From Dehalococcoidia bacterium (GTDB lineage: Bacteria; Chloroflexota; Dehalococcoidia; Lucifugimonadales; UBA3495): a stretch of DNA of 64,000 nucleotides. Under the pieces are notes generated by a model. It searched no databases, had not been told where the DNA came from, and saw nothing but the letters and a program-made list of their open reading frames with translations. The first letter of the stretch is position 1. The number at the start of each line of letters is the position of its first letter. The DNA lies in contig DAOUIY010000008.1 of the NCBI GenBank assembly GCA_034423215.1, forward strand, positions 80,904 through 144,903. The letters run 5' to 3'. Positions 476 through 49,345 of this stretch are shown piece after piece. Position numbers and translations under genes: made by a program.

Positions 476-941
476 TATTGGAATGATGGATAAGCTGAGA
501 GTCCGCTCGTGGTGAGCCTGTCGAACCATGAACGGACGGCCCTTCGACAGGCTCAGGGTGAGCGGAAATACTATCCATCATTTCTAGGGGGTGTCGTCAA
601 ATTGAATGTGGGGGCTTCCTAGCGTCCCCTTTCGTCGTTCCCGCGAAGGCGGGAACCTCGACCGGCAGTGGTTAAGATTCCTGCCTTCGCAGGAATGACG
701 GTGCATTTGACGACACGCCTTAATAAGTTGAACCACTCGGTTGCCATACGGTTCAGCCACCCAGTTTTCGCAACCAGGAACCTCCTTTAGTTACTCTTTC
801 CGCCGCGGCACGGGCGTGTCGTCAAAAGCGCCGTAATTTCTGCGCAGGCAGGTATCTCCGCTACAGCCGGTCGAGGTATCCGCGCAGGCGGGAACGCCGA
901 ACAGGGACGCTCGACAACCTCCACCTTCAATTTGACGACGG
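476..941. repeat. cluster of nested palindromic MITE/REP-like repeats (B module 476-586 reversed; A element 589-718; degenerate inverted A copy 814-941)
   Basis: 476-586 carries inverted arms ccgctcgtggtgagcctgtcgaacc / cttcgacaggctcagggtgagcgg. 589-718 is bounded by gtgtcgtcaaat...atttgacgacac and holds hairpins GTTCCCGC-gaag-GCGGGAAC and ATTCCTGC-cttc-GCAGGAAT. Near-identical copies occur elsewhere in the window. Confidence 0.85.
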
Positions 942-1224
942 GCCTCAAAGAACTGGGCCGTAGCTCAAATGTGCCGTTGGTCCATTACCGGGGTGTCCCG
1001 GCCAGCGGGTCCCCGGTATTGCTCGCCCGCCACATGAAAAACGGCAAATACGTGCCGCCAACGGTGGCCGGGGGGACCACCCCTGGGCCAGACCTACCCG
1101 GAAACTCCTGGCGAATGACATCCGGCCCTTTCCCCGGACGCTGCCGGCGGGTAACATGGGGCCTTGCCGGCCGGGCGCCGGTCACGCCAGTCGGTCACGC
1201 TAAACCTGAGGACGAACAGAGCCC

Positions 1225-3468
1225 ATGTCCACTGCCCTTGCTCCCCTTTCAGTCCTGAAGACCCACTTCGGTTTCGACAGTTTCCGCCCGCTGCAGGAGG
1301 AAATCATCACCCACGTCCTGTCCGGCGGGGACAGCCTGGCCCTCATGCCCACGGGCGGAGGCAAGTCCCTGTGCTACCAACTGCCGGCCATGTGCCTGCC
1401 CGGAATGACCCTGGTGGTCTCGCCGCTGATTGCCCTGATGAAAGACCAGGTTGACGCGCTCAACGCCAATGGCATCCCGGCCAGGTTCATCAACAGCTCA
1501 CTGACCGCCGCCGAGATCGAGCGGGTCCAGTCCGAGGCCGCAAGGGAGCAGGTCAAGATACTCTACGTGGCGCCCGAGCGCCTTGCCAGCGCTGGCTTCC
1601 GGCGATTCCTCGGCTCTGCCAAACTCAGCCTGCTGGCCATTGACGAAGCGCACTGCATTTCCGAGTGGGGCCACGAATTTCGTCCTGACTACCGGAACCT
1701 GCGCCAGCTGCGAGCGGACTTCCCCCAGGTGCCGGCTATCGCCCTGACGGCCACCGCCACCGAGCAGGTGCGGCAGGACATTATCGAGCAACTGGGGCTG
1801 AGCCGGGGCAAGGTGTTCCTGTCCAGTTTCAACCGGGAAAACCTCACCTACTCCGTGGAGTCCAAAGAAGGATACTGGGCGAAACTACTGGCCCTGCTGA
1901 AGGAACACCGGGATGAGTCCGCCATAATCTACTGCTTCTCCCGCCAGGAAACCGAGGAACTGGCCGAGGACCTGAACTCTCGCGGCTTTCACGCCAGGCC
2001 CTACCATGCCGGCCTGGAACCAGATACCCGCCGCCTAACCCAGGACGAGTTCATCATGGACCGGACGCCCATCATCGTGGCAACCATCGCCTTCGGCATG
2101 GGCATAGACAAGCCGGATATCCGCCTGATTGTTCACCATAGCCTGCCCAAATCAGTGGAGGGGTACTACCAGGAGACGGGACGCGCCGGGCGGGACGGCC
2201 TGCCCAGCCAATGCGTCCTCTTCTATTCCTACGCCGACCGGGCCAAGCATGAGTATTTCATCAGCCGCATGGAAGACCCGTCCGAGCAGGCAAACGCCCG
2301 TCGCAAGCTGACGCAGATGGTTGAGTACGCCGAACTGCCCCTCTGCCGGCGCAAGTCGGTGCTGGAGTATTTCGGCGAAACCCGGGACGAGGACAACTGC
2401 GCAAACTGCGACGTCTGTATGACTGCCGCCGAGCACTTCGACGCAACGGAACTGGTACAGAAAATCCTCTCCGCCGTGATTCGCACGGGGGAACGCTTCG
2501 GGGCCGCGCACGTAATCAAGGTTTTGAAGGGCAGCCAAGAAAAGCGCATCCTGGAACTGGGCCACGACAAGCTCAGCGTTCACGGCATCGTCAAGGGCGT
2601 CAGCGATGCCGAACTCCGCGACGTTTTCGCACACCTTCGCGCCCGGGGTTTGCTGCTGCGACAGGAGAGCGAATACGCGGTACTCTCCGTTTCTGAGCAA
2701 GGCAAGCGGTTCCTGAGGGAACGGGAGTCAATATCCCTGCCGCGCCTGAAATCCGGGCCCGGGAGCGACAAAGCCCAGGCCCCGGGGGCCGGCCGGCGCC
2801 GGGGTCAGGTCGAGGAGGAAACGGCCGACTATGACGTGGCCCTGTTTGAAGAACTGCGCCTGCTGCGGAGAAACCTGGCCGAGGCCCAGGAGATTCCGGC
2901 TTACGTCATTTTCGGCGACGTGGCGCTGCGGTACATGGCGGCCTTCATGCCCCAGGGACTGGAGTCCTTCTCTAGGATTCCCGGCGTCGGCAAGGCAAAA
3001 CTGGACCAGTACGGCCAACGGTTCGTAACCGCCATCAACGGCTACGCCGGTCCCCGGGGCCTGCCCGACCGGGCCGGAGCGCTGACGGCCCGGCGAAACC
3101 CAACGGGTACAGGAGAAAGAGGGTCGGGTAACTCTACCGGGGCCGAGACGCGCCCCGGGTCAACTCACCGGCAGACCCGTGAACTCCTGGCAAGGGGCTT
3201 GACCGTTGCCGATGTAGCCCGGCAGCGCAACGTGAAGGAATCAACCGTAATCGGCCACCTGGAACGACTGGCCGCCCAGGGCGAGACACTGGCGCTGGAC
3301 CACCTGTTCCAAGACCAGGCGCGATTGCGCCGGATTCAGGAGGCATACGATGCCTGCGGCCTGGACTTACTGAAGCCGGTTTGGGAGCATCTGGGAGGCG
3401 AATTCAGCTACGAGGAACTGCGTCTGGTGCGCATCTTTTTGCGCCAGGAGCGGTCCAGGGAAGCATGA
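1225..3468 (+). CDS. recQ: ATP-dependent DNA helicase RecQ
   Basis: 747 aa. N-terminus FGFDSFRPLQEEII, Walker A MPTGGGKSLCYQLPA, DEAH box LLAIDEAHCISEWGHEFRPDY. Zn-binding Cys cluster and a C-terminal HRDC/HTH-like region. Confidence 0.95.
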   Translation: MSTALAPLSVLKTHFGFDSFRPLQEEIITHVLSGGDSLALMPTGGGKSLCYQLPAMCLPGMTLVVSPLIALMKDQVDALNANGIPARFINSSLTAAEIERVQSEAAREQVKILYVAPERLASAGFRRFLGSAKLSLLAIDEAHCISEWGHEFRPDYRNLRQLRADFPQVPAIALTATATEQVRQDIIEQLGLSRGKVFLSSFNRENLTYSVESKEGYWAKLLALLKEHRDESAIIYCFSRQETEELAEDLNSRGFHARPYHAGLEPDTRRLTQDEFIMDRTPIIVATIAFGMGIDKPDIRLIVHHSLPKSVEGYYQETGRAGRDGLPSQCVLFYSYADRAKHEYFISRMEDPSEQANARRKLTQMVEYAELPLCRRKSVLEYFGETRDEDNCANCDVCMTAAEHFDATELVQKILSAVIRTGERFGAAHVIKVLKGSQEKRILELGHDKLSVHGIVKGVSDAELRDVFAHLRARGLLLRQESEYAVLSVSEQGKRFLRERESISLPRLKSGPGSDKAQAPGAGRRRGQVEEETADYDVALFEELRLLRRNLAEAQEIPAYVIFGDVALRYMAAFMPQGLESFSRIPGVGKAKLDQYGQRFVTAINGYAGPRGLPDRAGALTARRNPTGTGERGSGNSTGAETRPGSTHRQTRELLARGLTVADVARQRNVKESTVIGHLERLAAQGETLALDHLFQDQARLRRIQEAYDACGLDLLKPVWEHLGGEFSYEELRLVRIFLRQERSREA

Positions 3469-3492
3469 GCGCATTGTTAGCGATATGGGAGC

Positions 3493-9833: not shown

Positions 9834-9957
9834 TTCAGGCCCTCATCTAATTTCTGGAATTGGCTTCAAGATTCCCTTTTCCCTTGATGGAGAAGGATTG
9901 GGATGGATGCAAAGGCCCTGGTCGCCCTCTTACCCCGCTGGCAAGTGGCTTGCCTAG

Positions 9958-10090
9958 GGCGTGTCGTCAAATGCACCGTCATTCCTGCGAAGGCAGGAAT
10001 CTTAACTACTGCCGGTCGAGGTTCCCGCCTTCGCGGGAACGACGAAAGGGGACGCTGGGAAGCCCCCACATTCAATTTGACGACACCCCC
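9958..10090 (-). repeat. A-type MITE-like element (reverse orientation relative to 589-718)
   Basis: ggcgtgtcgtcaaatgcaccgtcATTCCTGCgaagGCAGGAAT...GTTCCCGCcttcGCGGGAAC...cacattcaatttgacgacaccccc. Near-identical to the reverse complement of 589-718 and to 25696-25828. Confidence 0.9.
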
Positions 10091-10251
10091 TAGCAACGAT
10101 GCTGAGAAAGTTACCGCATAAAGTAGCTGATTCTCAGCTTTCCAAGTTTAACGCCGGCATCCCATTGGTGGCAACACAAATGGCGGCCAGGTAAGTCAAT
10201 GCCCGGGGCAACGCGACGGGAATGGGAGCAAATCCCGGTCGGGCGCCGGTC

Positions 10252-11515: not shown

Positions 11516-11642
11516 GCCTGACTCGAACGGGTTTTCTCGGATGGGAATAGACCAGAATTATATTGGGGTAGCCGGAAAAGTGTCAATTTAGGGAGTGGCT
11601 TGAGAACCAGAAATTCGTCCAAAAGGCACAAGGGAAGGTCAC

Positions 11643-11785
11643 GTCGCCCTGAGCTTGCCGAAGGGCCTAAAATCCTCATGCCCAGGCGCGGTCGGGGCCC
11701 GATACAAACCTGCCGAGTAGGAGTTTAGATGCTTCGGCATAGTCTATACCGAGCTTGCCGAAGGACTCAGCATGACATTTCTCTA
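11643..11785. repeat. D-type repeat copy
   Basis: gtcgccctgagcttgccgaagggcctaaaatcct...gtttagatgcttc...gagcttgccgaagga. Related to 31037-31160 (gtcgccctgagcttgccgaagggctcgaaatcct...gtttagattcttc). Confidence 0.7.
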
Positions 11786-12589: not shown

Positions 12590-13141
12590 ATGGGTGCATT
12601 CAGAAAAATGATGGCCGGCCTCCTGGCCGTCATTTCCGTGGCAGTAGCAGTCCAGTTCGTCATTGGCGAAATCTATAGCGAGTTCTGGTCCAACTCGCAC
12701 GTTATATGGGACTACCTGAACTGGCTCACCGGCCCCGGTCTGCTCGTTATTCTGTACTACCAGTTCCAGCGAAAGCGGGCCTTCGACGGGCAGAACCGGG
12801 ATGAAAGCGTCACCTTTGGCTACCTGTCGGCCAACCTGCTGCTCTTCACCAGCCTGTTCCTGACCCTCTGGTTCTTTGCCAACTGGTTTGAGGAGCTGAA
12901 CATCAACGAGAGCACGTCCACCACTGTACTGGGCTTCGTGTGGATTGTTTTCAACGCTTGCTTTATCGTGCTGGCCGCCATAACCGCCTGGCAGTTGTGG
13001 CGGCACGGCAGCGGCGACGGGACAGAAAACTCCGCCAACTCGCCGCAGACAACCATTAACGATTTTCCACCCGGCAACCCGGTAATCCAGGAAAACTCGA
13101 TAGTCCAGGAATCCGAGGGGCAGCTCACCCGCAGCCACTAA
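12590..13141 (+). CDS. hypothetical 4-TM membrane protein (paralog 2)
   Basis: 183 aa. AGGAGG SD 6 nt upstream of the ATG. Paralogous to 12122-12580, with an extra hydrophilic C-terminal tail. Confidence 0.7.
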   Translation: MGAFRKMMAGLLAVISVAVAVQFVIGEIYSEFWSNSHVIWDYLNWLTGPGLLVILYYQFQRKRAFDGQNRDESVTFGYLSANLLLFTSLFLTLWFFANWFEELNINESTSTTVLGFVWIVFNACFIVLAAITAWQLWRHGSGDGTENSANSPQTTINDFPPGNPVIQENSIVQESEGQLTRSH

Positions 13142-13150
13142 CCGTCCGAC

Positions 13151-13478
13151 TTAATTGAACTGATGGATAATATTCCCGCTCACTATAAGCTTGTTGAAGG
13201 GCCGCCCGTTCATATTTGGACAGGCTCACCACGGGCAACCCCCCGGTTTACTTATTGATACCGTGCCAGGGTAGGGGCCCACGGTCATGCGCCCCTGCGG
13301 CCTGACAAAACTGCAATGATCCCTGGACCCGCCCCGCCCGTCGTTCCCGCGTGGAAATCGCCGACTGGCCCCACCCGTCGTTCCCGCACAGGCGGGAACC
13401 TCGGCAGGTGGGCGCTCAGATTCCTGCGAAGGCAGGAATGACGATTCAGTGCGTTAGCCATCATTTCAACATGGTTGC
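13151..13478 (+). repeat. composite B-C-A repeat element
   Basis: Order: TIR-like aattgaactgatgg; B arms gctcactataagcttgttgaagggccg / ggacaggctcacc; C hairpin aggggcccacggtcatgcgcccct; A hairpins GTTCCCGCacagGCGGGAAC and ATTCCTGCgaagGCAGGAAT. The right end is ccatcatttcaacatggttgcc. Confidence 0.85.
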
Positions 13479-13715
13479 CCTGCTGGTAACGGCATGTAAA
13501 CCGCCCCCACCGTCTCTTCTACGTTGAAAGCGTACATTCGGGACGGAAGCGCGGGTCCCGTATCTCCCTTCCCCTACTGGCCGACGCTGCCTCCGGCACA
13601 ATCGTTGACCTGGCTGCCAGCCTGAACGGCCCGCTCCGGGCCCCTTTGGAAATGGGGCAAGAGGGGAGGGGCCGTTTCTTTGTGCCGCTCTCATCATAAA
13701 AAATCTTTAGGGGCC

Positions 13716-15133: not shown

Positions 15134-15300
15134 TTGGGCGGGGGCGCCAACACCGCCAGGGTTGAAGTTTACGGTGGCATGAAGTCTCCCGCGCCCAAGG
15201 AGCTATGGCGGCCCGCTCCGGGCCCGGCGCAAATCCCGACCATGAAGAAAACACCCGAAGCAAAGTGTTTGCCTCGGGTGTTCTTGCGGTATGCGGAGCC

Positions 15301-15640
15301 TGGTTGTTCAACTCATTTGAACTGGTGGGAAATTGTCTCTGCTCACCCTGAACTTGTCGAAGGGCCGCCCGTTCATGGTCCGACAGGCTCACCCCACGAG
15401 CGGACTAACGGGTTTAGTCCTCGATACAATGCAGGGGCGCACGGACAGGCGCTCCTACAACTTGGCAACTTTGACATGGTGCCTTGTCCCGCCCAGCCCG
15501 TTGATCCCGTTTGGAAGTCTCCGACCAGCCCAACCCGTCGTTCCCGCGCAGGCGGGAACCTCGACGGGCTGGAGTTATGATTCCTGCCTGCGCAGGAATG
15601 ACGGGTGAGCGCATGAGCCAGCATTCCAAAACGGTTGGAC
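15301..15640 (+). repeat. composite B-C-A repeat element
   Basis: Left end ggttgttcaactcatttgaactggtgg; B arms gctcaccctgaacttgtcgaagggccg / cgacaggctcacc; C hairpin aggggcgcacggacaggcgctcct. A hairpins are GTTCCCGCgcagGCGGGAAC and ATTCCTGCctgcGCAGGAAT. The right end is cattccaaaacggttggac. Same orientation as 13151-13478. Confidence 0.85.
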
Positions 15641-15744
15641 TACTACCGCCTCGCCCGTCTCGCCCTCGCCAAAGCTGGGGGTTGCCGTTAATACAAAGGC
15701 AGTTTCCCGCGGGTTGCCCGTCCGGTCGCACCCGGGGGTATTGC

Positions 15745-17295: not shown

Positions 17296-17447
17296 GGTGG
17301 TTCATGGGGGCAGGGATGACGAAAAAATTATGAGCCCGCTCATGGTGAGCTTGTCGAACCATTTACTTGTAAAACTGCGAACGGGCGGCCCTTCGACCAA
17401 CTCCGGGTGAGCGGGAGTATTATCCATCAGTTTAAATGTGTGAACCG
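17296..17447 (-). repeat. B-type repeat (reverse orientation) with an A-module remnant
   Basis: gcccgctcatggtgagcttgtcgaacc ... cccttcgaccaactccgggtgagcgg ... ccatcagtttaaatgtgtgaacc, preceded by the remnant cagggatgacg. Confidence 0.8.
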
Positions 17448-17571
17448 TTAAGGCGCCGGCCGGGTCTCATTGACCGGGAAAGACTCTCTCGATACCCAAA
17501 TCGTACTTTCAACAATGTAGAATAATATTATATATCGGCAGTTGCGAAATTACTGGGGGAAGGGTAAGGGT

Positions 17572-20070: not shown

Positions 20071-20204
20071 CAGGGCAAACGCATTCTCCCACCTGGCCGG
20101 ATTCCCGAAGGTTAAGAGGGACCTGATGCATTACTTGCCAGGTTCGAGGTTCCCGCCTTCGCTGGAACGACGGACTCTCCAAAATTTAGAATGCGTTTGC
20201 CCTG
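20071..20204. repeat. MITE-like element with perfect 17-bp terminal inverted repeats
   Basis: CAGGGCAAACGCATTCT (20071-20087) and AGAATGCGTTTGCCCTG (20188-20204) are exact reverse complements. The interior carries degenerate copies of the A-module hairpins (attcccgaagg..., GTTCCCGCcttcGCTGGAAC). Confidence 0.85.
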
Positions 20205-25633: not shown

Positions 25634-25695
25634 AATTGAAACCTCGTGCACAGTACAGCAACCAAACAAGAACGCTTATTCTCCGGAGAAGCCAG

Positions 25696-25828
25696 GGCGC
25701 GTCGTCAAGAGCGCCTTCATTCCTGCGAAGGCAGGAATCTTAACTACTGCCGGTCGAGGTTCCCGCCTTCGCGGGAACGACGAAAGGGGATGCTAGGAAG
25801 CCCCCACATTCAATTTGACGACACCCCC
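25696..25828 (-). repeat. A-type MITE-like element
   Basis: Nearly identical to 9958-10090: ...cattcctgcgaaggcaggaatcttaactactgccggtcgaggttcccgccttcgcgggaacgacgaaagggga...cacattcaatttgacgacaccccc. Confidence 0.9.
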
Positions 25829-26276
25829 TAACCTGTTGGAAGAGACGGACGGTTTCTTACCCAACGCTGCCAAAAGTCACGGCGGCAACAGGTTGGAGAT
25901 TCGCAGCGCCGGGGTTGGGGTTGCGCCGCTGGGCACAGTTCCCAAGGGTTACTCGCCACTGCTTCGAACTCCGACGGATTGCATCTTTCAGCCTGCCCAA
26001 AAAAGCATAAATGGCAGTCTAAAGCCCAGTTTATACAGTGTCAATAACTTTTACCCAGTATTCGTAAAACAAATAGATTTCGCCATCTATATCATGTAAA
26101 ACGTCGCCGAGGTGAGGAAAGCAGCGCCATGTCTCGCGTTCACAGGCCCGCGACAGACTGGGCCCAGAGCTTGAAGGGAGCCGGCCGGTCTCCCAGCTAA
26201 AGCCCCACCGCCCCGGCCCGTCCGCAGCCGCCTGGCGCGGTGACAGCCCGCCCTTTCCCCCAGCCGAAGCCCACGC

Positions 26277-28550: not shown

Positions 28551-28636
28551 CCGGGCGCCGGGTGGCTTACGGCAATTAAGCAGCGCCGGGCGGGCCGCAA
28601 AATACCGCGTCTAACCCCGTTACTTTTCCACCTTAT

Positions 28637-29014
28637 GGGTCAACTTGCTTGAACTATGGACAATATTTCTGCTCACCATGGTCCTGTCGAAGGGCCGTTC
28701 CTTGATGGTCCAACAAGCTAATCATGAGCGGGCCACCGGGTTTGCTCATTGATGCAACGTAGGGGCGCGTGGACATGCGCCCCTACGGCCCGGCAATTTT
28801 GAATTGATGGTTGCAGCGGCCCAACCCGTCGTTCCCAAAAAGACGGGAACCTCGACCAACCCAACTCGTCGTTCCCGAGCAGGCGGGAACCTCGACCAAC
28901 CCAACCCGTCGTTCCCGAGCAGGCGGGAACCCCGACAGGCTGGAGTTAAGATTGCTGCCGTCGCAGGAATGACGGGTTAGTGCATTACCCATCTTTTCAA
29001 ACATGGTTAACCAC
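28637..29014 (+). repeat. most complete composite B-C-A element, with imperfect TIRs and a 3x tandem 40-nt hairpin unit
   Basis: Left end gggtcaacttgcttgaactatgg, right end ccatcttttcaaacatggttaaccac (imperfect inverted repeat). B arms, then C hairpin GTAGGGGCGC-gtggacat-GCGCCCCTAC. Three tandem units of cgtcgttccc....gggaacctcgaccaacccaac (28821-28935), then ATTGCTGCcgtcGCAGGAAT. Confidence 0.85.
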
Positions 29015-29047: not shown

Positions 29048-29680
29048 TCACGGCTGGGACAGTTCGGTGAATACGCGGCGCCATTCCTGGTCGTCTCCCT
29101 GTCCCATGCCCTCCCGGTAAGTTATCATCCCTTCCCGGTCAAAGGCGATTTTGGTGGACTGGATGGTCACACCCAGGTCCGCCATTACCTGGGCGGGGGC
29201 GGTGGCCACCGGCCAGGGATGGTCGCGTTCGGCCCGGTAGGTCTCCAGGGTGGTAATGTCCTCAACGATTCCCGGGTGGACTCCGATGGCATAGAAGTCC
29301 ACGTCCCCGGCGTATTGGGGGTAGATGTCCTTCATCCGCCGCAACTCGGCGGTGCAAACCGGTCAAACGGTGGCCCAGAAAAAGAGGAAGGTGGGCCGGC
29401 CCGAGTTCACCAGGTCAGCAGAGGTAACGGCGCTGCCGTCTGCCAGCGTCAGGGTAAAGTCGGGCACCTGGTAGCCCGGCTGGTTTCCAATATCGGCAAC
29501 CGGATCGGGGAAATCTGCGCCGGTAAGCACGTAGCCGGATCCAGGGGGTTCTGTATTGCCGCCGGACACGTCCATGCTCTCCCCGTTGGCAGCCAAATAG
29601 ATGGACACCCCCATTCCGATGGCGGGCACCAGCACCCCCAGCCCCAGCAACACCTTTCCGATCCAACCGTTCTTGTTCAT
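29048..29680 (-). CDS. membrane-anchored thioredoxin-fold (TlpA/AhpC-TSA redoxin-like) oxidoreductase, predicted selenoprotein with U-P-V-C motif (in-frame TGA at 29363-29365)
   Basis: Track ORFs 29363-29794 and 29048-29344 are in the same frame, separated only by TGA. The joined sequence reads ...GRPTFLFFWATV-U-PVCTAELRRMKDIY.... The TGA sits where the first redox Cys belongs. The paralog at 29831-30892 has the same arrangement and a hairpin lies 10 nt downstream. Start set at ATG 29680 because a strong terminator lies at 29744-29789. Confidence 0.8.
29336..29352 (-). promoter_or_regulatory. candidate bacterial SECIS stem-loop for the 29363-29365 UGA
   Basis: The mRNA reads UGA-ccgguuugca-CCGCCG-aguug-CGGCGG. 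This is a 6-bp all-GC stem with a 5-nt G/U-containing loop starting 10 nt after the UGA. A further A-U and C-G pair is possible across one bulge. The sequence is identical in the paralog. Confidence 0.65.
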
Positions 29681-29830: not shown

Positions 29831-30892
29831 TTACTGGGATGACAGGTCCGTGAACACCTGCTGCCAGACGTCAGGACCGCCGCCGCCAAAACCGTCCCGG
29901 TAGATTATGACGCCCCGGGAATCGAAGGCTATCTTGGTTGACTGGCTGGAGACGTTCAGGGCGGAAAGGGCCTCGCGTTCGTTGACGGGGTTGGCTACCG
30001 GCCAGGGAAACCCGTTTCTCTCTCGGTGGCTTTCCAGCCTGTTCACGTCCTCAACTGCCTTGACGTATGTACCCACCGCATAAAAGTTGACCTGGTCCGC
30101 ATATTCGGGGTAAATCTCCTTCAGCCGCCGCAACTCGGCGGTGCAGACCCCTCAAGTGGTGGCGGTAAAGAACAGGAAGGTCGGTTTGCCCTGCTCCACC
30201 AGGCCGGCGGTCGAAACCGTATCTCCGCCGAACAGTTCGAGGGTAATGTCCGGGATGCGGTTGCCCACCTTGTTGCCCACCTCGGGCAGGGGTTCCTGGG
30301 GAACCGGCGTAGGCGCGTCCGTGGGCGTGGGTTCCGCGGCCTGGGTCGGCGCCGGGGCGGAGGTGGCGGTAGGGGCCGGCTGTACCACGGGAGCCTCAGC
30401 AGGAGTTGCTGCTGTTGGCTGAGCTACTGCCGGCTGGGCCTCCGTCGCCTGGGTGGGCTCGGCGGCCGGCTCAGGCTGGGCAACTACGACCACGGCCAGG
30501 GCAGGGTTTTCAGACGCCGGCGGGTCTGCTACGGCTGCAGGGGTATTTTCCGCCGCCTGGCTCATTTCCTCGACGGACGGTGAATCCTGGACTGCTCCGG
30601 CAACCACCGGCTGGGTTTCGACCGGTGCGGCCTGCTGGGAGGACGTTGCCGCCAGGGGTTGACTCGCTTCCTGGGGCGCGGTCTGCTCAACCGCGGTGCC
30701 CAGGGATTCGGACTGCGCGCCGGTAGCCGGCTCCGATTGGCGGCTTTCTCCGGCGGCCGGGGCCACTTGTTCCGGGGGGCTGTCGGACTGGCAAGCCACG
30801 CTGGCTACCAGCAGCAGGCCAACCAATCCGGGGACGGCCCAGCGCAGCTTGCCGCGCAACCTCCGGCCCCCCGCGGGGAAGGTTAATTTCAT
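29831..30892 (-). CDS. lipoprotein with a long low-complexity linker and a thioredoxin-fold redoxin-like domain, predicted selenoprotein with U-G-V-C motif (in-frame TGA at 30152-30154)
   Basis: Track ORFs 30152-30892 and 29831-30133 are in frame across the TGA. The junction reads ...GKPTFLFFTATT-U-GVCTAELRRLKEIY.... Lipobox LLVASVAC, then about 170 aa of Ala/Pro/Gln/Thr/Glu-rich linker. The C-terminal domain aligns with gene A on both sides of the TGA. Confidence 0.8.
30125..30141 (-). promoter_or_regulatory. candidate bacterial SECIS stem-loop for the 30152-30154 UGA
   Basis: The mRNA reads UGA-ggggucugca-CCGCCG-aguug-CGGCGG. The hairpin and the 10-nt spacing match 29336-29352. Confidence 0.65.
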
Positions 30893-30988: not shown

Positions 30989-31195
30989 GCAGGGCGATTG
31001 CAGCTTGAATTGAGCCGTACACCCAACCTGAAGTCATGTCGCCCTGAGCTTGCCGAAGGGCTCGAAATCCTTCCCTCCAACCCGGTTGCGGGTACGAAAG
31101 TCGAATTGTGGGATGGGGTTTAGATTCTTCACTCCGTTCAGAATGACAGGTTTAGCCGCTCAGGATAACAATTCGTTAAAGCGCATTTGCCCTGC
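30989..31195. repeat. D-type repeat with imperfect TIRs related to the 20071-20204 element
   Basis: Left end gcagggcgattgcagctt, right end aaagcgcatttgccctgc (compare CAGGGCAAACGCATTCT). The interior gtcgccctgagcttgccgaagggctcgaaatcct...gtttagattcttcactccgttcagaatgac matches 11643-11785. Confidence 0.7.
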
Positions 31196-36788: not shown

Positions 36789-38717
36789 TTAGTCGTTGTC
36801 CGCCGGGGCCGGAATCAAGGCGCCTCCGCCGGGCTCAGACCCATTATCGTGGGAGAGGCCGTAGTTAATGGCATACAGCCTGGAGTAAACACCGTTCCGG
36901 CGCAGCAGTTCCTCGTGGCGGCCAACCTCGGCGATTCGCCCCTTGTCCAGCACCACAATCTTGTCCGCGCTCCGGATGGTTGAGAGTCGGTGGGCTATGA
37001 CTACGGAGGTACGGCCCTCCAGGACATGGCTCAACGCTTCCTGAATCAGAATTTCCGTATGGGTATCAATGTTGGCGGTGGCCTCGTCCAGGACAATAAT
37101 GCGGGGGTCGCCCACGATGGCGCGGGCGAAGCTGATTAACTGGCGCTGCCCCACGCTGAGGTTGACGCCCCTTTCCGCCAGGACCGTGTTGTAGCCGTCC
37201 TCCAGGGACATGATGAAGTCGTGGGCGCCCACGGCCCGGGCGGCGGCAATAACATCCTCGTCCGTGGCATCCTCGTAGCAGTAGCGTATGTTGTCCATGA
37301 CGTTGCCGGAGAACAGGTAGGGCTCCTGCAGCACCATGCTCATCTGGCCCACCAGGGATTCCCGCCTGACGTCCCGCAGGTCATATCCGTCAATGGTAAT
37401 CCTGCCCCCGGTAACGTCGGCAAACCGGTGAACGAGGGTTACCATGGTGCTCTTGCCAGCGCCGGTGGAGCCCACCAGGGCCACGTTCTCGCCGGGGTTA
37501 ATCTGAAGGTTGATGTCCTGCAGTACCTCGACGCCCTCCACATAGTGGAAGTTGACCTCTTCGAACTTTATCTCGCCGCGAATGGGCGGCATTTCAATGG
37601 CGTCTGGCTTGTCCTTGACTTCCGGTTCCAGGTCCATCAACTCGAAGATGCGGACGCCGGCGGCCATGGACCGCTGGAACACCCCGTACTGCATGGTAAG
37701 ATGCCGGATAGGCTCAAAGAAGCGCTGAATCCAGAAGGCGAAGGCCACCAGCACGCCCCAGTCCAAGTTGCCGCCCTTGACCAGCAGGCCGCCCACCAGG
37801 ATTACGCCGAATCCCATGCCCACGCCGATGAGAAACTCCACCATGGGCTGCAAACCGCCCGAGAACCGGCTGGCCTGGAGGTTGGCGTCCAGGTGCTCCT
37901 GGTTCAGTTCCTGAAAGTGGCGCAGGTTCTCATCCTGCCGGTTGAGGCTCTGCACCACCCGGACGCCGGTAATGTTCTGGTTGTACTCGCCGTTGACCAT
38001 GGCTATTGCTCGCCGGATGCGCATGAAGGAACGGCGGGCGAAACGCTGCCAGTAAGCCAGGATAAAGAAGAGGACCGGCACTATGCTCAAGCTGACCAGG
38101 GCCAGTTGCCAGTCCACCACCAGCATGTAAATGATGATGAAGGCCAGGGTCAGGACGTCGGCCAGGGCCAGCACCAGCATTTCGAAGGTTTCCTGGAGTT
38201 GCAGCACGTCGCTCTGGCTGCGGGACATAATGCGTCCCACCGCCGTCCGGTGGTAGAAGGAGGGCGACAGGTTCTGCAGGTGGCTGAACATCTGGGTGCG
38301 CAGGGAATAGAGAATGCTCTGCCCCACCCGCGCCATGAACACGAACTGAAGGTAGTTGGCGCCAAAATGGACCAGCGTTACCAGCAGGAAGCCCAGGCCA
38401 ATCATGTGCAGCGGGTGCAGGCTCCAGAATCCTCCTTCATTCCCGCCGCCGGTAATGCTGTTGATACCCAGCAATATGAGCAGGGGTATGCTGGCGTTGG
38501 AGATGGTATAGGTCAGTACCGCTATCAGGCTTTTAATAACGTCGGACTTGTAGGGCCCCATGTATGAGATGAGGCGCAACACCACCTTGTTGTTGTAAAC
38601 CGAGCCAATAGCATTGTCGTCGCTGAGGTTGTCCATGGTGGGAGAGTTGATGCCGCCCGATTGCAGGCCGCGCATCCCGCCCATCATGCCGCCGAAGCCG
38701 CCTCCCATTCCGCGCAT
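36789..38717 (-). CDS. ABC exporter, fused permease/ATPase subunit (partner 2 of a heterodimer) with a Gly/Met-rich N-terminal extension
   Basis: Six-TM domain plus NBD (GSTGAGKST, LSVGQRQLISFARA, IVLDEATA). The start ATG overlaps the upstream stop (TAATG) and has GGAGGTGA 8 nt upstream. The N-terminus is MRGMGGGFGGMMGGMRGLQSGG. Confidence 0.9.
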   Translation of the reverse strand: MRGMGGGFGGMMGGMRGLQSGGINSPTMDNLSDDNAIGSVYNNKVVLRLISYMGPYKSDVIKSLIAVLTYTISNASIPLLILLGINSITGGGNEGGFWSLHPLHMIGLGFLLVTLVHFGANYLQFVFMARVGQSILYSLRTQMFSHLQNLSPSFYHRTAVGRIMSRSQSDVLQLQETFEMLVLALADVLTLAFIIIYMLVVDWQLALVSLSIVPVLFFILAYWQRFARRSFMRIRRAIAMVNGEYNQNITGVRVVQSLNRQDENLRHFQELNQEHLDANLQASRFSGGLQPMVEFLIGVGMGFGVILVGGLLVKGGNLDWGVLVAFAFWIQRFFEPIRHLTMQYGVFQRSMAAGVRIFELMDLEPEVKDKPDAIEMPPIRGEIKFEEVNFHYVEGVEVLQDINLQINPGENVALVGSTGAGKSTMVTLVHRFADVTGGRITIDGYDLRDVRRESLVGQMSMVLQEPYLFSGNVMDNIRYCYEDATDEDVIAAARAVGAHDFIMSLEDGYNTVLAERGVNLSVGQRQLISFARAIVGDPRIIVLDEATANIDTHTEILIQEALSHVLEGRTSVVIAHRLSTIRSADKIVVLDKGRIAEVGRHEELLRRNGVYSRLYAINYGLSHDNGSEPGGGALIPAPADND

Positions 38718-40537
38718 TAGTTGTCACCTCCGTCGCCGCCGGCTATGGAAGCGTCCAGCAGGACTTCCTCCTGGGGCCGAAGTTGCAATTCGTAAATATC
38801 CCTGTAAATTCCACGCTTGGCCATCAAGTCGGTGTGATTGCCCTCCTCCGCTATCTTGCCGTCCCGCAGCACCAGGATCTGGTCCGCCTCCCTCACGGTG
38901 CTGAGGCGGTGGGCGATAACGAAGGTAGTCCGGCCCTTCATCACGTTTACCATGGCCTGGTGAATTTGCCGCTCCGTCTCCACGTCCACGCTGGAGGTTG
39001 AGTCGTCCAGGATGAGGATGGGCGGGTTCACCAGCACCGTGCGGGCGATGGAAAGCCGCTGCCGCTGGCCGCCCGAGAGGGTGCTTCCCCGTTCCCCGAC
39101 CCAGGTATCGTAACCGTAGGCGAAGGACATTATCTGGTCGTGGAGTTGTGCGACCTTGGCCGCATTGATAATGTCCTCCTCGGTGGCGGTGGAAATCCCG
39201 TAGGCTATGTTGTCCCGGATGGTGGCGTCGAACAGGAAGATGTCCTGCTGCACGATGCCCACGTTGCGCCGGAGGGATTCCAGGGTATATTCACGGATGT
39301 CCTCACCGTCAATAGTGACTCTGCCGCCGGTTACGTCGTAGAAGCGGGGCAGCAGGTTTACGACGGTGCTCTTGCCGCTGCCCGGCGCCCCCAGAATGGC
39401 GGTCACCTTGCCGGGTTCGGCATTTATGTTGACCTCGTTGAGGGTGGCCGCCCGGGCTTCGTAGGCGAAGGACGCCTGTTCGAACCGGACGTGACCCACG
39501 GCCCGCCCCATTTCGCGGGCGCCCGGCTTCTCTTCCACCGGGGAACTGGCGTCCAGGACCTCAAAGATGCGGCGGCCCGAGGAAATCGCCCTGGAGAAGC
39601 TGTTGATAATCTGCGCCGAAGCCCGAATGGGGAAAGTCAACTGGTTCAGGTAGAGAACGAACTTGGTCAAGTCACCCGCGCTCAGGTCACCCCGTAAAAT
39701 CTCCCAGCCGCCGTACCACACAATCAGGCACAGGGCAAAGGTGAAATAGAGGCTCATCCACGCGCTGTTGGTGCCCTGGAGCCGCTCCGACTGGTAGTAT
39801 TCCTCTCTTAGCTCCCTGGCCTTCCTGTCGTATTTGCGACGCTCAAAGTTCTCGGACCCGAAGGCCTTGACCACATGGATGCCAACCAGGTTTTCCTGCA
39901 GCACGGTTACGAGCTCGCCGTTAACCTCCTGAACGTGCAGCCACATCCGCCGCAGCTTGCCGATGACAAAGGTGGACCGCATTACCAGGAAGGGCACGAA
40001 TACCAGGCTGATGAGGGCCAGTTCCCAGTTCAGCCAAATGAGGATGCTGGTAACGGCAATGGTGCGTACCACAACCTCCAGCGAGCGGACCAGGCCCATG
40101 TTTACGAACCGGCGTATGGCCTCCACGTCGGCGGTGGCCTTGGACATCAGGTTGCCGGTGTGTTCCTTGTCGTGGTAGGCAAAGCTGACGTGCTGCAGCT
40201 TGTCGTAAATCTGGTTGCGGAAGTCGTAGCTGACCAACTGGGAGAGGGAGTCGGTGGTGTAGGTGCGGGCAAAGTCGAAGAAGCCGCGCATGAGGCTGGC
40301 GCCCAATAGCAGGCTGGCCAGCAGGAACAATGTTCCCACGGTGAGGTCGGGGTTGCTGATAAACCTGCCGCCCTCTTCAAGGACGCCTTCCACCACCACA
40401 ATTTCGTCTATGGCCTCGCCAAAGAGCCAGGGAACCAGCAGGGAGAAACCGATAGCGGCAAAGAAGGAGGCGTATGCCAGAATCAACCGCGTCCGGTAAA
40501 GATAGGCCATGCGGGTGATTCTTATCAAAATGCTCAT
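38717..40537 (-). CDS. ABC exporter, fused permease/ATPase subunit (partner 1)
   Basis: TM domain plus NBD (GAPGSGKST, LSGGQRQRLSIART, LILDDSTS). Start set at ATG 40537 (MSILIRITRMAYLY...); the ORF is open to 40738. Confidence 0.9.
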   Translation of the reverse strand: MSILIRITRMAYLYRTRLILAYASFFAAIGFSLLVPWLFGEAIDEIVVVEGVLEEGGRFISNPDLTVGTLFLLASLLLGASLMRGFFDFARTYTTDSLSQLVSYDFRNQIYDKLQHVSFAYHDKEHTGNLMSKATADVEAIRRFVNMGLVRSLEVVVRTIAVTSILIWLNWELALISLVFVPFLVMRSTFVIGKLRRMWLHVQEVNGELVTVLQENLVGIHVVKAFGSENFERRKYDRKARELREEYYQSERLQGTNSAWMSLYFTFALCLIVWYGGWEILRGDLSAGDLTKFVLYLNQLTFPIRASAQIINSFSRAISSGRRIFEVLDASSPVEEKPGAREMGRAVGHVRFEQASFAYEARAATLNEVNINAEPGKVTAILGAPGSGKSTVVNLLPRFYDVTGGRVTIDGEDIREYTLESLRRNVGIVQQDIFLFDATIRDNIAYGISTATEEDIINAAKVAQLHDQIMSFAYGYDTWVGERGSTLSGGQRQRLSIARTVLVNPPILILDDSTSSVDVETERQIHQAMVNVMKGRTTFVIAHRLSTVREADQILVLRDGKIAEEGNHTDLMAKRGIYRDIYELQLRPQEEVLLDASIAGGDGGDN

Positions 40538-43701: not shown

Positions 43702-43705
43702 CAAT

Positions 43706-43990
43706 CCACCAGTTTTGATGAGGTGGTTATTGCACCAAGGCGTCATTCCTGCTTTCGCAGGAACCTGAACTCCAGGCAATCGAGGTTCCCGCCTGCGCGG
43801 GAACGACGGGTTGAGCCGGGCCGAGCTTCATTTCAGAGTTGCCAGATTACCAGTGGTTCAACTCATTTGAACTGATGAACAACATTTCCGCTCACCCTGG
43901 GCTTGTCGAAGGGCCGCCCTTTCATGGTTGGACAAGCTCACCATGAGCGGACTTTCAGCGATAACATCATCTCTATGGCGAAAGACCACT
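43706..43990. repeat. two abutting half-elements: reversed A end (43706-43818) and forward B module (43853-43990)
   Basis: The A end contains gtcATTCCTGCtttcGCAGGAAC...GTTCCCGCctgcGCGGGAACgacgg. The B module reads gtggttcaactcatttgaactgatg...gctcaccctgggcttgtcgaagggccg...ggacaagctcaccatgagcgg. Confidence 0.8.
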
Positions 43991-43993
43991 GGT

Positions 43994-46304: not shown

Positions 46305-46420
46305 TTGCCGAGTCTGCTCCGACGCCTTCTTTACCTTACCTGGGAAAGTATAGCACCCAACGGCAACAAAGAAAGCCGATTTCGACGCTGGGGCCGGCGT
46401 AAAATTCGCTTAACAGGCTA

Positions 46421-46595
46421 GTGGTTCAACTCATCTGAAGTGATGGATAGTATTTCCGCTCACCCTGAGCCTGTCGAAGGGCCGCCCATTCGCAGATTGA
46501 CAATTTGACGGTTCGACAGGTTCACCATGAGCGGACTCCCGGTTTACTCATCAATGCAAAGTGGTCAATCTACTATGAGCCAATCTACTATGAGC
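46421..46595 (+). repeat. B-type repeat followed by a 2x15-bp tandem duplication
   Basis: gtggttcaactcatctgaagtgatgg...gctcaccctgagcctgtcgaagggccg...ttcgacaggttcaccatgagcgg...catcaatgcaaagtggtc. After it, caatctactatgagc occurs twice in tandem (46566-46595). Confidence 0.85.
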
Positions 46596-46702
46596 GGTAG
46601 CCCGATGACCGATGAGCAGGTCACCCGGCCAATAACCGGCTTCAGTTGGCAGCTATGTGCCGCTGGGCTACAATAGGCCATCCTTACCCAACGAGGTGCA
46701 AC

Positions 46703-47098: not shown

Positions 47099-47314
47099 CC
47101 CGCCCCATTCCGCAATGTAGGGCCAGCGCATTGCCGGGCCCGCTCTTCCGGGCATTGACGGCCGCCGGTAGCTCCGGCTTTGGCGGCGGTTGCCGGGAAA
47201 GGGCGGGCCCGGTTTGGTTGGAAGCACGGCAGTTGCGCCGGAAATATGCGGCAAACACCCACCCCGTTCAACGACTCGGGTTAGCATCCCCTTCTAATTG
47301 GGTAGGGGAGAGCG

Positions 47315-48022
47315 TCAGGGCAGGAAGGCAAGCACCGAGGCAGGGGAGCCGGAGCCTCCCTTCAAGCGCAGAATCCCCACAACGAGGACAGCCCCCACCG
47401 GCGGGAGCTTGTCCAGGTTGCAGAGGTTTTCCAGGACCGGCCGGCGGCGTTCCAGCACCCGTCGGTTTATCGAGAAGGCGGTGTCCAGGCCGCCATCTAC
47501 CCCGTGAGTATCAATGCCCACGCCGGCGACGCCCCGCTGGGTCAGCAACACCCCCATGGACTGGGCATCAAAGCCGGGAAAGTGCAGGGAGCCATCCTCC
47601 GCCGGGCCCAGGTAGGCGCGGGAGTCCTGCCATTTGTCTTGCCAACCGGTGTAGAGGAGGGCAAAACACTGGGGCGGAACGGCGCCGTGTTCCCGTTCCC
47701 ATGCCAGCAGCTTGTCAACCCGCAGCAGGTAGTCGGGGTCAGCGCCCGCTTCCTCGCTCACGTCTATCACCACCGCGGGGGCAACCAGCGCTGAGGCGGG
47801 GAATTCGTCCACGCCCATGCCGCCAGCGATGAACCCGGCCGGCGCGTTGACGTGGGTGCCCGAATGTTCACCCATGGAGAACCGCCGCAAATTGAAACCG
47901 TCCTCCTGCAGGCTGGCGACGGATTCCAGTTCGAGTTCAGGGTCTCCGGGCCAGGTTGGCATTTCGGAGTCCAGGACGTGGCTCAAGTCCACAACGCGGT
48001 AATTGGCGGGGAAATTGGTCAT
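47315..48022 (-). CDS. putative cyclase / kynurenine-formamidase-like family protein
   Basis: VVDLSH..., MGEHSGTHVNAP (HxGTHxDxP-like metal motif), GVGIDTHGVD. Start at ATG 48022. Confidence 0.75.
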   Translation of the reverse strand: MTNFPANYRVVDLSHVLDSEMPTWPGDPELELESVASLQEDGFNLRRFSMGEHSGTHVNAPAGFIAGGMGVDEFPASALVAPAVVIDVSEEAGADPDYLLRVDKLLAWEREHGAVPPQCFALLYTGWQDKWQDSRAYLGPAEDGSLHFPGFDAQSMGVLLTQRGVAGVGIDTHGVDGGLDTAFSINRRVLERRRPVLENLCNLDKLPPVGAVLVVGILRLKGGSGSPASVLAFLP

Positions 48023-48111
48023 ATTGCAAGCATCCGACGGGAAGAGACGCGGCGCCCGCCGGGGCACAGAGTGTTGGCGTGATCCCGACTGTTTGTTGGT
48101 CTTTATCGCAT

Positions 48112-48906
48112 TTACTGGTCCTCTTCGTCCAGCCCGCTGACCCGACCCAGGAAAACGTCGGTGAGGATATTGGTTTCCTCCACGGTTTGAGGGGTCCCGC
48201 TATGGACGACCCTGCCCTTGTCCAGGACGTAGGCACGGCTGGCTATGTCCAGCACTCCCTTGATGTTGTGCTCCACCACGAAAATGGTAGTCTGCAAACG
48301 CTGGTTGATTTCGTGGACCTTGTCGAACACTTCCTTGACGATGATGGGGGCCAGCCCCAGGGTGGGCTCATCCAGCAGCAGCACCTCCGGCGATGCCATC
48401 AGCCCGCGTCCCAGGGCCAGCATTTGCTGCTGGCCACCGGACATCTGGCTGGCCATATCCTTCCGCTTTTCGTACAGCACCGGAAACAACTCCAGCACCG
48501 AATCCAGCCGCCTGGCCTGCTCGGACGAATCGTTCAGGTAGAGGCAGCCAATCTCCAGGTTTTCGGCCACCGACAGGTGGGTAAATACCCGCCGGCCCTG
48601 GGGCACGAAGGAAATACCCTGCCTGACTATTTCGTGGGTAGGCGACCTGAGGCGTTCGCCCTTCCAGTAAACCTCGCCCCCGGTGACCGGAACCAGGCCC
48701 ATGATGGCCTTCAGCACCGTGGACTTGCCGGCGCCGTTGGGGCCCATCACCGCGGCAAGCTCGCCCCGGCGCACACCCAGGGTGGCGTGGTTCAGGGCGA
48801 CAACCGCGCCAAACTGCACCGTCACGTCGCTCAACTCCAGAACCATTCCCGATTCTGCGGCGCCCGCGTCGTCATGGGGCTTTATGTTGGTCGCCTGGTT
48901 GTTCAT
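48112..48906 (-). CDS. livF: branched-chain amino acid-type ABC transporter ATP-binding protein (LivF-like)
   Basis: GPNGAGKST, MSGGQQQMLALGRGL, LLLDEPTLGLAP. Last gene of the liv-type operon. The substrate is unknown. Confidence 0.85.
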   Translation of the reverse strand: MNNQATNIKPHDDAGAAESGMVLELSDVTVQFGAVVALNHATLGVRRGELAAVMGPNGAGKSTVLKAIMGLVPVTGGEVYWKGERLRSPTHEIVRQGISFVPQGRRVFTHLSVAENLEIGCLYLNDSSEQARRLDSVLELFPVLYEKRKDMASQMSGGQQQMLALGRGLMASPEVLLLDEPTLGLAPIIVKEVFDKVHEINQRLQTTIFVVEHNIKGVLDIASRAYVLDKGRVVHSGTPQTVEETNILTDVFLGRVSGLDEEDQ

Positions 48907-48970
48907 GGCTCACATACCGGCTTCATACCACCGAATATCTTGTGACCAGGAAAATATTCCTTAGCTGATA

Positions 48971-49345
48971 GCAGTTCAACCGTTTTGAAACGATGGGAGT
49001 ATTTCCGCTCACCCTGAGCCTGTCGAAGAGCCATCCGCTCATGGTTCGACAGGCTCACCATGAGCGGACTCCCGGGTTTACCCATCAATAAAAAGTGGTC
49101 TAACTACTAGCAGTTCGACCGTCCTGAAATGATGGCTGACGCCCTGAACCGTAATTCCTGCTAAGGCAGGAATCTGAACTATAGCCAGCCGAGGTTCCCG
49201 CTTGCACGGGAACGACGGATTAGGCTGATTTGATCATCATTTCCTATTTGTCAGAGTACCAGTCGAAAAACTTGCTTGAAACCATGGTAGTGTTCCCGCT
49301 CACTCTGAAACTGAGGAAAAGCGCTCCTCCAAAGGGCCGCTACTC
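48971..49345. repeat. block of three or four repeat modules between livG and livF
   Basis: A B module (gcagttcaaccgttttgaaacgatgg...gctcaccctgagcctgtcgaagagcc...ttcgacaggctcaccatgagcgg). A TIR-like agcagttcgaccgtcctgaaatgatgg. Reversed A hairpins ATTCCTGCtaagGCAGGAAT and GTTCCCGcttgcaCGGGAAC. A truncated B copy (gttcccgctcactctgaaactg...). Confidence 0.85.

Follow-up and report, generated by a model that had tools for sequence, protein, structure and literature searches.

Intergenic repeats on a Dehalococcoidia scaffold are probably miniature elements of IS630/Tc1-mariner type that carry CGTC-tagged hairpins as cargo

What spreads the short palindromic repeats that lie scattered through the intergenic DNA of a Dehalococcoidia bacterium? 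The question is raised by a stretch of 64,000 nucleotides of contig DAOUIY010000008.1 (assembly GCA_034423215.1, positions 80,904 to 144,903), which we call the window. An earlier note, made from the letters of this DNA alone, had described a few modules (A, B, C, and D) that recur in varying combinations between genes, had labeled them modular intergenic repeats resembling miniature inverted-repeat transposable elements (MITEs) or repetitive extragenic palindromic (REP) sequences, and had proposed that the hairpin structure itself is recognized or propagated. The label was right. The proposed mechanism was not upheld for this genome, in which hairpins never occur free and the units that move are defined by terminal inverted repeats (TIRs) and duplicate a TA dinucleotide. 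The explanation that we favor, with a probability of roughly 0.72, is that the repeats are non-autonomous transposable elements, i.e., MITEs, of IS630/Tc1-mariner type, which fall into two TIR families and carry CGTC REP hairpins as cargo.

The analysis covered 78 kb of the 287-kb European Nucleotide Archive metagenome scaffold NGUY21-1_SAMN17524321_METAG-scaffold_102, from window position -8775 to 69370, where negative coordinates lie upstream of window position 1. Gene calls and precomputed Pfam matches were used across these same 78 kb, hereafter the region. The DNA has a G+C content of about 61%. Using self-BLAST and a repeat finder, we recovered repeats at 13 intergenic loci of the window, namely, 478-941, 9955-10101, 11638-11735, 13144-13488, 15297-15645, 17332-17446, 20144-20173, 25694-25830, 28636-29011, 31033-31130, 43708-43961, 46415-46575, and 48974-49287. 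Together they amount to 2,929 bp, or 4.6% of the window and 23% of all its intergenic sequence, in agreement with the earlier counts of at least 13 loci and several percent of the sequence. No repeat lies inside any called gene. The gaps that hold repeats are divergent (5 of 8), convergent (3 of 9), and tandem (5 of 33); all three kinds of junction are used, as had been claimed, and as is expected for insertion into any non-coding DNA. The similarity among copies is beyond chance. The A hairpin RTTCCYGC-N4-GCRGGAAY, with at most one mismatch, had 18 matches, compared with 0.01 expected from dinucleotide shuffles, and the B arm had 9 matches, compared with 0.08 expected by chance. The 10 kb preceding the window contain additional copies. 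Three other samples had been assembled independently, and these assemblies, 98.4 to 99% identical to the window, showed the same repeats in the same places, and the repeats are therefore not an assembly error.

Module A is a 68-bp head-to-head heterodimer of CGTC-tagged REP hairpins, one of a G type (CGTC-GTTCCCGC-N4-GCGGGAAC) and one of an inverted A type (ATTCCTGC-N4-GCAGGAAT-GACG). The region contains 25 such hairpins, which make up 11 dimers, one remnant singleton, and one tandem triplication. Every dimer (11 of 11) joins a G-type to an A-type hairpin with the tags outside and the hairpin starts exactly 40 bp apart, around a conserved 20-bp spacer that reads roughly CTCGrCnGGCnGnrGTTnAG. 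All 11 dimers lie within one of two TIR frameworks, which we term S and T. The sole singleton is a truncated dimer on the plus strand (20130-20172), consisting of part of the spacer and a G-type hairpin at 20149-20168 with one stem mismatch. At 28820-28936, a G-type hairpin and its flank are repeated in tandem (2.9 copies, 40-bp period, 90% matches); nothing else in the region resembles an array. Of the 25 hairpins, 23 carry the CGTC/GACG tag, with one mismatch at most, on their outer side; those at -1422 and 28951 are the exceptions.

Stems were fully paired (8 of 8 pairs) in 15 of the 25 hairpins. Nine of the ten imperfect hairpins showed a one-sided departure from both canonical stems, and the tenth (43745) had an A-type stem with a G-type base at one end. 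The only two-sided stem change was found in one perfect copy at -1422, ATTCCCGC...GCGGGAAT. Since the stem changes are mostly one-sided, the variation within this genome looks like decay of the copies away from master sequences. The loops, when read from the tag, were mostly GAAG, GCAG, or GAAA. All six loops given in the earlier note for the second A hairpin and its reversed copies (GAAG, CTTC, CTGC, TTTC, TAAG, and CGTC) are present, but much of their variety is a matter of orientation, GAAG/CTTC and GCAG/CTGC each being the same loop read in two directions. At 13420-13439 and 43745-43764, the A-type loops are inverted relative to the tag, reading GAAG and TTTC in place of the expected CTTC and GAAA, an arrangement that would arise if the loop of a perfect palindrome were flipped.

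The first of the two frameworks, the S element, is 134 bp long and is bounded by a TIR of 16 bp with 1 mismatch, GGGsGTGTCGTCAAAT (aligned ends GGGCGTGTCGTCAAAT and GGGGGTGTCGTCAAAT); its cargo is the 68-bp heterodimer. Five copies occur in the region, three of which are 95 to 98.5% identical, and the other two are old copies at 77 to 80%. The copy at 9957-10090 (plus strand; hairpins 9981-10000 and 10021-10040) has TA at both ends and a reconstructed empty site of CTAG. The copy at 25695-25828 (plus strand; hairpins 25719-25738 and 25759-25778) is 95% identical to it. The third young copy, at 587-720 on the minus strand, corresponds to a long A element in the earlier note. It has the TIRs GGGGGTGTCGTCAAAT and AGGCGTGTCGTCAAAT and hairpins at 637-656 and 677-696, is flanked by TA at 585-586 and 721-722, and matches the copy at 9957-10090 at 98.5% identity. 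The degenerate copy at 812-944 (plus strand), about 77 to 80% identical to the young ones, has both stems broken, with 6 of 8 pairs left. Old copies with broken stems beside young, near-identical ones fit bursts of transposition that were followed by decay.

The S copy at 587-720 is nested inside the left TIR of a T element that carries module B (464-741, minus strand; B core palindrome at 503-565) and splits this outer TIR in two. When the 134 bp were excised together with one TA, the sequence GTTCAACTTATTAGAAATGATGG was obtained, which aligned without gaps to the left ends of five other T elements of this kind. Because a paralogous empty site is restored with a single TA, the S family generates a 2-bp TA target-site duplication. 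The earlier note had read this locus (476-941) as modules lying back to back, and that description has to be amended by the nested insertion. Relatives of S that are about 84% identical over the alignable part were found on two contigs of the sponge metagenome-assembled genome (MAG) Chloroflexota RHO2_bin_36. When the fetched loci were scanned for both the S and T TIRs, one related S end only was detected, on the Chloroflexota MAG contig L056.

The second framework, T, has a TIR of about 28 bp, GYRGTTCAAC-N5-TGAA-N2-GATGG, preceded by TA. It bounds either module B alone (T-B, about 135 to 150 bp), an A dimer alone (T-A, about 145 to 165 bp), or a B-C-A composite (about 340 to 380 bp, 3 copies). 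TA precedes 8 of the 11 well-aligned T ends, with CTA in 4 of those 8, and it is found on both flanks of the elements at 46421-46570, 48971-49107, and 28635-29014. The core of module B is a 63-bp imperfect palindrome. T-B elements stand alone at 46421-46570 (plus strand), where the left TIR reads TA followed by GTGGTTCAACTCATCTGAAGTGATGG, and at 48971-49107 (plus strand). The right-hand TA of the latter is common to the next element, a T-A at 49110-49275 (plus strand; heterodimer 49154-49173 and 49194-49213), after which a degenerate B-like remnant extends to about 49345. A T-A element at 43708-43852 (minus strand; heterodimer 43745-43764 and 43785-43804) abuts a T-B element at 43853-43990 (plus strand), and the T-B element at 17332-17449 (minus strand) has one end truncated.

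All three composites lie on the plus strand, at 13141-13483 (C at 13271-13298, heterodimer at 13380-13399 and 13420-13439), 15303-15643 (C at 15431-15458, heterodimer at 15540-15559 and 15580-15599), and 28635-29014 (C at 28759-28786, followed by the triplicated G-type hairpin at 28820-28936 and an A-type hairpin at 28951-28970). Their layout is that of a T-B element, the GC hairpin C, and then a T-A element, with the outermost T TIRs as bounds; the fixed B-C-A order described earlier is thus found three times. The three composites have their junctions in common, at 72 to 82% identity, from which it follows that the composite was copied as one unit. Module C begins with GTAG and occurs in 3 copies, all inside the composites and nowhere else in the region. 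The earlier account is corrected in this respect, C being confined to composites, and likewise in that D was found only twice.

Elements of the IS630 family use TA, often as part of CTAG, as their insertion target and duplicate it. When metagenome contigs were scanned with a degenerate T TIR, three of them matched. One of them, L181, contains an element that ends in CCATCAATTCAGCTCGGTTGAACCAC followed by TA. Three collinear open reading frame (ORF) fragments within it match the NCBIfam model NF033545 (IS630 family transposase) at profile positions 7-95, 147-206, and 241-299 and the Pfam domains HTH_32 and DDE_3. As the gene is frameshifted, each NF033545 match falls short of the curated cut-off, and the stop codon of the last fragment falls within the TIR. 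A complete relative of this element, 95% identical, is present on contig L190, with the TIRs GTGGACCAACCGTGCTAATTTGACG and GTGGTTCAACCGAGCTGAATTGATG, each flanked by C-TA-G. Intact relatives amounted to 1,589 proteins at an E value of ≤1e-5, typically a 209-amino-acid DDE_3 orfB ending in ...RIKLKRLYPSIQLG. One of these proteins, P0109, from intact elements with a helix-turn-helix orfA and a DDE_3 orfB, was read in seven contigs, in which at least 3 different flanks were seen at each end; CTA preceded all of the left ends, and TAG followed 6 of 7 right ends. The flanking of IS630-family elements by TA or CTAG was hence seen directly in the P0109 contigs and in L190.

The left TIR of the T-B element at 46421-46570 is the best match in the window to the IS630-family end in L181 and L190. 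In a manual alignment, 24 of 28 positions were identical between this TIR and the right TIR of L190. Moreover, its other strand encodes Y-P-S-L-Q-M-S-stop, a remnant of the transposase C terminus ...RLYPSIQLG-stop. The TIR match and the coding remnant together argue that the T MITEs descend from the transposase-distal end of an IS630-family element. For the S family, no insertion sequence with a matching TIR was found among all fetched loci.

TIR-defined units that duplicate TA are the mark of a DDE transposase acting on TIRs. We hypothesize that such a transposase, encoded elsewhere in the genome, would bind the S and T TIRs and insert the element at TA, often within CTAG, with duplication of the TA. 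Both the hairpin dimers and the palindrome of module B would be carried inside the element as cargo, so that the dimers would travel as passengers and not as the recognized sites. A composite of about 340 bp would move as one via its two outermost TIRs, and nested, adjacent, and composite insertions would give rise to the modular appearance of the repeats. We infer that an IS630-family transposase is present in this genome and mobilizes both families. The partner insertion sequence for T would be expected to carry the ends TA followed by GTGGTTCAAC..., and that for S would carry TA followed by GGGsGTGTCGTCAAAT.

Several observations weigh against this explanation. As the earlier note had reported for the window, there was no transposase, integrase, or REP-associated tyrosine transposase (RAYT) among the Pfam matches of all called genes in the region, and NCBIfam identified no mobile-element genes among ten proteins without Pfam matches; the 78 kb thus hold no transposase of any kind. 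An autonomous partner or TIR relative of S was not found beyond two Chloroflexota MAG contigs. No presence/absence difference of an S or T element was seen among the three strains that are 98.4 to 99% identical to the window. TA is absent at 3 of the 11 well-aligned T ends and at the left end of the composite at 15303. The IS630 link consists of TIR similarity to elements from unrelated metagenomes and other organisms, and another contig that matched the T-TIR pattern, L182, proved to be a chance match inside an IS30-like gene upon manual reading of its translation. Finally, the same dimer occurs in two unrelated TIR frameworks, which simple carriage as a passenger leaves unexplained.

RUP of Streptococcus pneumoniae is an IS630-derived MITE that is thought to be moved by IS630-Spn1. 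The elements described here resemble RUP-like MITEs in being small and non-coding, in the IS630-like TIRs of the T family, in TA duplication and many intergenic copies, and in their presumed mobilization in trans. They differ in that the cargo consists of REP hairpins and a long palindrome instead of deleted insertion sequence DNA, and in that there are two TIR families and composites of two elements that appear to move as one. Nor is a partner insertion sequence present in the 78 kb.

The hairpins of the window belong to the CGTC-1 class of REPs (Di Nocera, De Gregorio, and Rocco, 2013; PMC3733652). According to that paper, members of this class have an unpaired CGTC (or TGTC/CCTC) tag on a stem of 8 bp with a loop of 4 nt and are organized mostly as head-to-head dimers; dRS3 of Neisseria and RPE-6 of Rickettsia are among them. 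The hairpins studied here are alike in their tag, 8-bp stem, 4-nt loop of few types, head-to-head dimers, intergenic location, and lack of a linked transposase, and they form heterodimers, as do those of Halothiobacillus neapolitanus and C. taiwanensis. They differ in their tails (CTC, CTT, or CTG instead of CCA) and in their stems, since the G-type stem (GTTCCCGC) starts with G-C, while the A-type stem (ATTCCTGC) has A-T at positions 1 and 2. As the paper describes these two features with the words "almost invariable" and "most," these hairpins represent a variant of the class and are not excluded from it. Two further differences from the published class are the spacer, fixed here at 20 bp, and the enclosing palindrome, which in the window is a TIR with demonstrated TA duplication. 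CGTC dimers of H. neapolitanus are described there as enclosed in a 41-bp palindrome and so provide a precedent for the S family.

The genomes of 185,579 species were scanned with CGTCGTTCCCG-N6-CGGGAACC. At least 118 stretches matched, in Massilia, Duganella, Cupriavidus, Lysobacter, alphaproteobacterial MAGs, and several MAGs of Dehalococcoidia, Chloroflexota, and Anaerolineales. Among the matches listed, there were 151 hairpins, 86 of them with an inverted partner, and at least 15 different perfectly complementary stems. In the 57 distinct partners, 6 of the 8 stem pairs varied on both sides; partners had been chosen for at least 6 of 8 pairs, and the percentage paired is therefore partly given by construction. 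Read from the tag, the loops of the 151 hairpins were almost always GCAG, GAAG, or GAAA, with a polarity that is fixed relative to the tag. Since the stems change in a compensatory manner from genome to genome, hairpin geometry is kept at the level of the CGTC family. The earlier argument from preserved stems is consequently supported across genomes, whereas within the 78 kb mostly one-sided decay is seen. The CCA tail is present in proteobacterial CGTC copies, and a CTCG tail variant occurs in Chloroflexota and Dehalococcoidia MAGs. JGI metagenomes contained no match to the exact heterodimer, from which we conclude that the lineage is absent from that collection.

Covariation of this kind bears on the main rival of the explanation by TIR-directed transposition. 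In classical REPs and bacterial interspersed mosaic elements (BIMEs), the hairpins themselves are mobile, being recognized as tagged stem-loops on single-stranded DNA by a RAYT of the IS200/IS605 HUH type, and the larger units would merely be mosaics of REPs. Besides the co-varying CGTC stems (at least 15 perfect variants, 6 of 8 pairs two-sided) and the fixed loop polarity, this model can draw on the fit of module A to the CGTC-1 class, on the GTAG with which module C starts, and on the 40-bp tandem triplication of the G-type hairpin at 28820-28936. Nevertheless, we consider it unlikely. In the region, the hairpins are found only as fixed dimers within TIR units that duplicate TA, and RAYT/IS200-type elements are not known to make target duplications. 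No RAYT (Y1_Tnp) is encoded in the 78 kb. When 3,250 ORFs from the 118 loci listed in other genomes were clustered, no transposase family was recurrent near CGTC hairpins, and only common housekeeping families recurred. Likewise, Di Nocera et al. (PMC3733652) were unable to link any transposase to CGTC repeats. With its 3 copies, all in composites, module C does not provide independently dispersed GTAG palindromes. Compared with REPs and BIMEs that have a RAYT (Nunvar et al., 2010; PMC2817692), the repeats are alike in their GC-rich tagged palindromes, alternating orientation, and composite intergenic structures; they differ in having TIRs and target duplications, in the rarity of the GTAG-type hairpin C, and in the lack of a RAYT in the region. 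Chloroflexi are named for GTAG repeats and not for CGTC repeats in the accessible part of PMC3733652. Module C was considered as such a GTAG REP family and was rejected, its copies being too few and none of them independent.

An alternative that dispenses with transposition holds that the mosaics grow by recombination between repeats, in the manner of neisserial intergenic mosaic elements (NIMEs). A difference between strains in module D is relevant here. Module D is present in two copies, each with paired tagged hairpins that have 5-bp stems and 11-nt loops. The copy at 11638-11763 (plus strand) contains two of these short-stemmed hairpins with the tags CGTC and TGTC, the first of which is related to the B arm (GTCGCCCTGAGCTTGCCGAAGGGC). 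The second copy, at 31033-31155 (plus strand), is 75% identical over 96 nt to a stretch in a Dehalococcoidia MAG (L040:1069-1163). The strain of sample SAMN17524316 (L178:3140-3200) lacks exactly 100 bp of the first copy (11665-11764). A 14-bp direct repeat, GAGCTTGCCGAAGG, contained in two B-arm-like motifs, marks the limits of this difference. The simplest reading is that recombination between these motifs deleted the segment, given that module D is conserved in full at 31033 and in the Dehalococcoidia MAG.

Recombination between repeat motifs of this kind speaks for a NIME-like substrate, as does the kinship of the hairpins. The dRS3 element of Neisseria (ATTCCC-N8-GGGAAT) is itself a CGTC-1 element according to PMC3733652; the window contains ATTCCT-N8-AGGAAT and GTTCCC-N8-GGGAAC, and an exact ATTCCCGC...GCGGGAAT lies just upstream. 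NIMEs (PMC1797815) also have dRS3-like hairpins among other repeat families in intergenic mosaics, and their arrays mix several such families, although they are described there as specific to Neisseria. However, the dimers of the region are fixed, with a conserved 20-bp spacer, and long hairpin arrays with varied units of 50 to 150 bp do not occur. No recombinase or prophage was found nearby (78 kb), and a nested insertion with TA duplication is the footprint of transposition. For these reasons, growth by recombination in place of transposition appears improbable. Correia elements are bounded by TIRs and flanked by TA. From NIMEs and Correia elements, the window differs in the sequence of its TIRs and internal units, which are unrelated to theirs, and in having no long dRS3-RS arrays.

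Equally improbable in our view is that the repeats are functional RNA or regulatory elements that are kept by host selection, i.e., terminators, mRNA-stabilizing hairpins, or regulon operators. The folds are indeed strong. The A dimer had a z score of -5.7 as DNA and of -8.4 and -9.8 as RNA for the two strands, and two B elements had z scores of -2.9 and -7.6 (DNA). In addition, functions in mRNA stability and termination have been reported for REPs of other bacteria (PMC3733652). Yet Rfam gave no match to the repeats even at an E value of ≤1, and the hairpins were without a following T-run upon manual reading. Both orientations are represented among the elements, which also occupy 5 of 8 divergent gaps; in old copies, stems are broken with no compensating change; and the TIRs, TA duplication, and nested insertion point to selfish spread. 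NIME-like recombination or a role as RNA hairpins may be an added function; neither explains the TIRs together with the duplications. A known structured RNA was likewise rejected as an identity for the repeats, the tRNA-Asp gene being the only feature returned by Rfam at both the gathering threshold and an E value of ≤1. Module D as a conserved leader RNA was also rejected, as it folds no better than shuffled sequence (z score of +0.6 to -0.9).

The elements are of known kinds, namely, CGTC-1 REP dimers and IS630-type MITEs. What the sequence-based analysis adds is that CGTC REP dimers can ride in TA-duplicating MITEs, one family of which appears to be IS630-derived, and it probably extends the repeat class to a Chloroflexota lineage. 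It is possible, although we put this forward only tentatively, that CGTC REPs, which occur in several phyla and for which no transposase is known, in general spread as passengers in MITEs moved by ordinary IS630/Tc1-mariner transposases. If true generally, this would answer the question of how CGTC REPs are disseminated, including between phyla, that was posed by Di Nocera et al. (2013).

Such repeats also fragment metagenome assemblies and generate spurious ORFs. Contigs from other samples of the same study break inside the repeats: L121 ends at 43803, L124 ends at 17335, L175 starts at about 46454, and L178 ends at about 13514. These breaks suggest a high genome-wide copy number. The expression of neighboring genes can be altered as well, with five loci in divergent promoter regions and one cluster between ABC transporter ATPase genes. 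This cluster (48971-49345), made up of a T-B element, a T-A element, and the B-like remnant, fills a 471-bp gap between two ATPase genes on the same strand. Permease and binding-protein genes adjoin them; the set looks like one operon, the co-transcription of which may be affected. At the right end of the T-B element at 46421-46570, a perfect 15-bp tandem duplication (CAATCTACTATGAGC twice, 46566-46595) spans the TIR end and the flanking TA.

The arm of module B, CCGCTCACCCTGAGCyTGTCGAAGGG, is encountered far beyond these elements. It was found at 94 to 100% identity over about 30 bp in plasmids of Sphingobium, Novosphingobium, and Comamonas, and it also occurs in 28 IMG/VR viral contigs, where it forms singletons, inverted pairs, and tandem arrays. 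It is almost unchanged in alpha- and betaproteobacterial megaplasmids and viral contigs (L127:1437-1530, L128:1300-1620, and L145-L172). The singletons occupy very short gene gaps, and in one phage contig the arm forms a hairpin followed by a T-run. Literature searches by the B-arm sequence and by junk peptides encoded by the repeats returned no relevant description, and the arm may be an undescribed pan-bacterial repeat unit. In one comparison, relatives of the S, B, and D repeat families were found only in Chloroflexota and Dehalococcoidia MAGs; the wider occurrence of the B arm was established separately. Three copies of the unit TGTC-ATyCT-GAACGGAGTGA-AGrAT lie within 8 kb of a Dehalococcoidia chromosome (L040:6826 and two further sites), and one of these copies is identical to the unit in module D at 31033 (window 31100-31150). 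With its 5-bp stem and 11-nt loop, the unit looks like another family of tagged-hairpin repeats.

The region otherwise encodes ordinary housekeeping and catabolic functions. These include RecQ, split PurL/PurQ, UvrD, G6PD, ArgRS, HisRS, ABC transporters, three CoA-transferase family III proteins, a luciferase-like oxidoreductase, and an amidohydrolase, in addition to the tRNA-Asp at 59673-59749. Three SGL (SMP-30/gluconolactonase-like) paralogues are arranged in tandem, and window positions 59882-69210 and the upstream part to -2659 are rich in SGL genes. This gene content (SGL, CoA-transferase III, and luciferase-like proteins) we take to resemble that of SAR202-type Chloroflexota. Together with the split PurL/PurQ genes, the CTCG tail, and the relatives of S, B, and D in such MAGs, it points to a Chloroflexota as the source, probably a Dehalococcoidia-like symbiont of sponges. 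A CRISPR array was rejected as an identity for the repeats, there being just the 2.9-copy tandem with its 40-bp period and no cas genes in the gene calls. Two internal similarities lie within coding sequence. One, between 29289-29414 and 30078-30203, falls within an operon made up of four small genes that lack annotation; the other, between 37281-37484 and 39200-39376, connects two adjacent ABC membrane/ATPase paralogues; both are unrelated to the intergenic repeat families.

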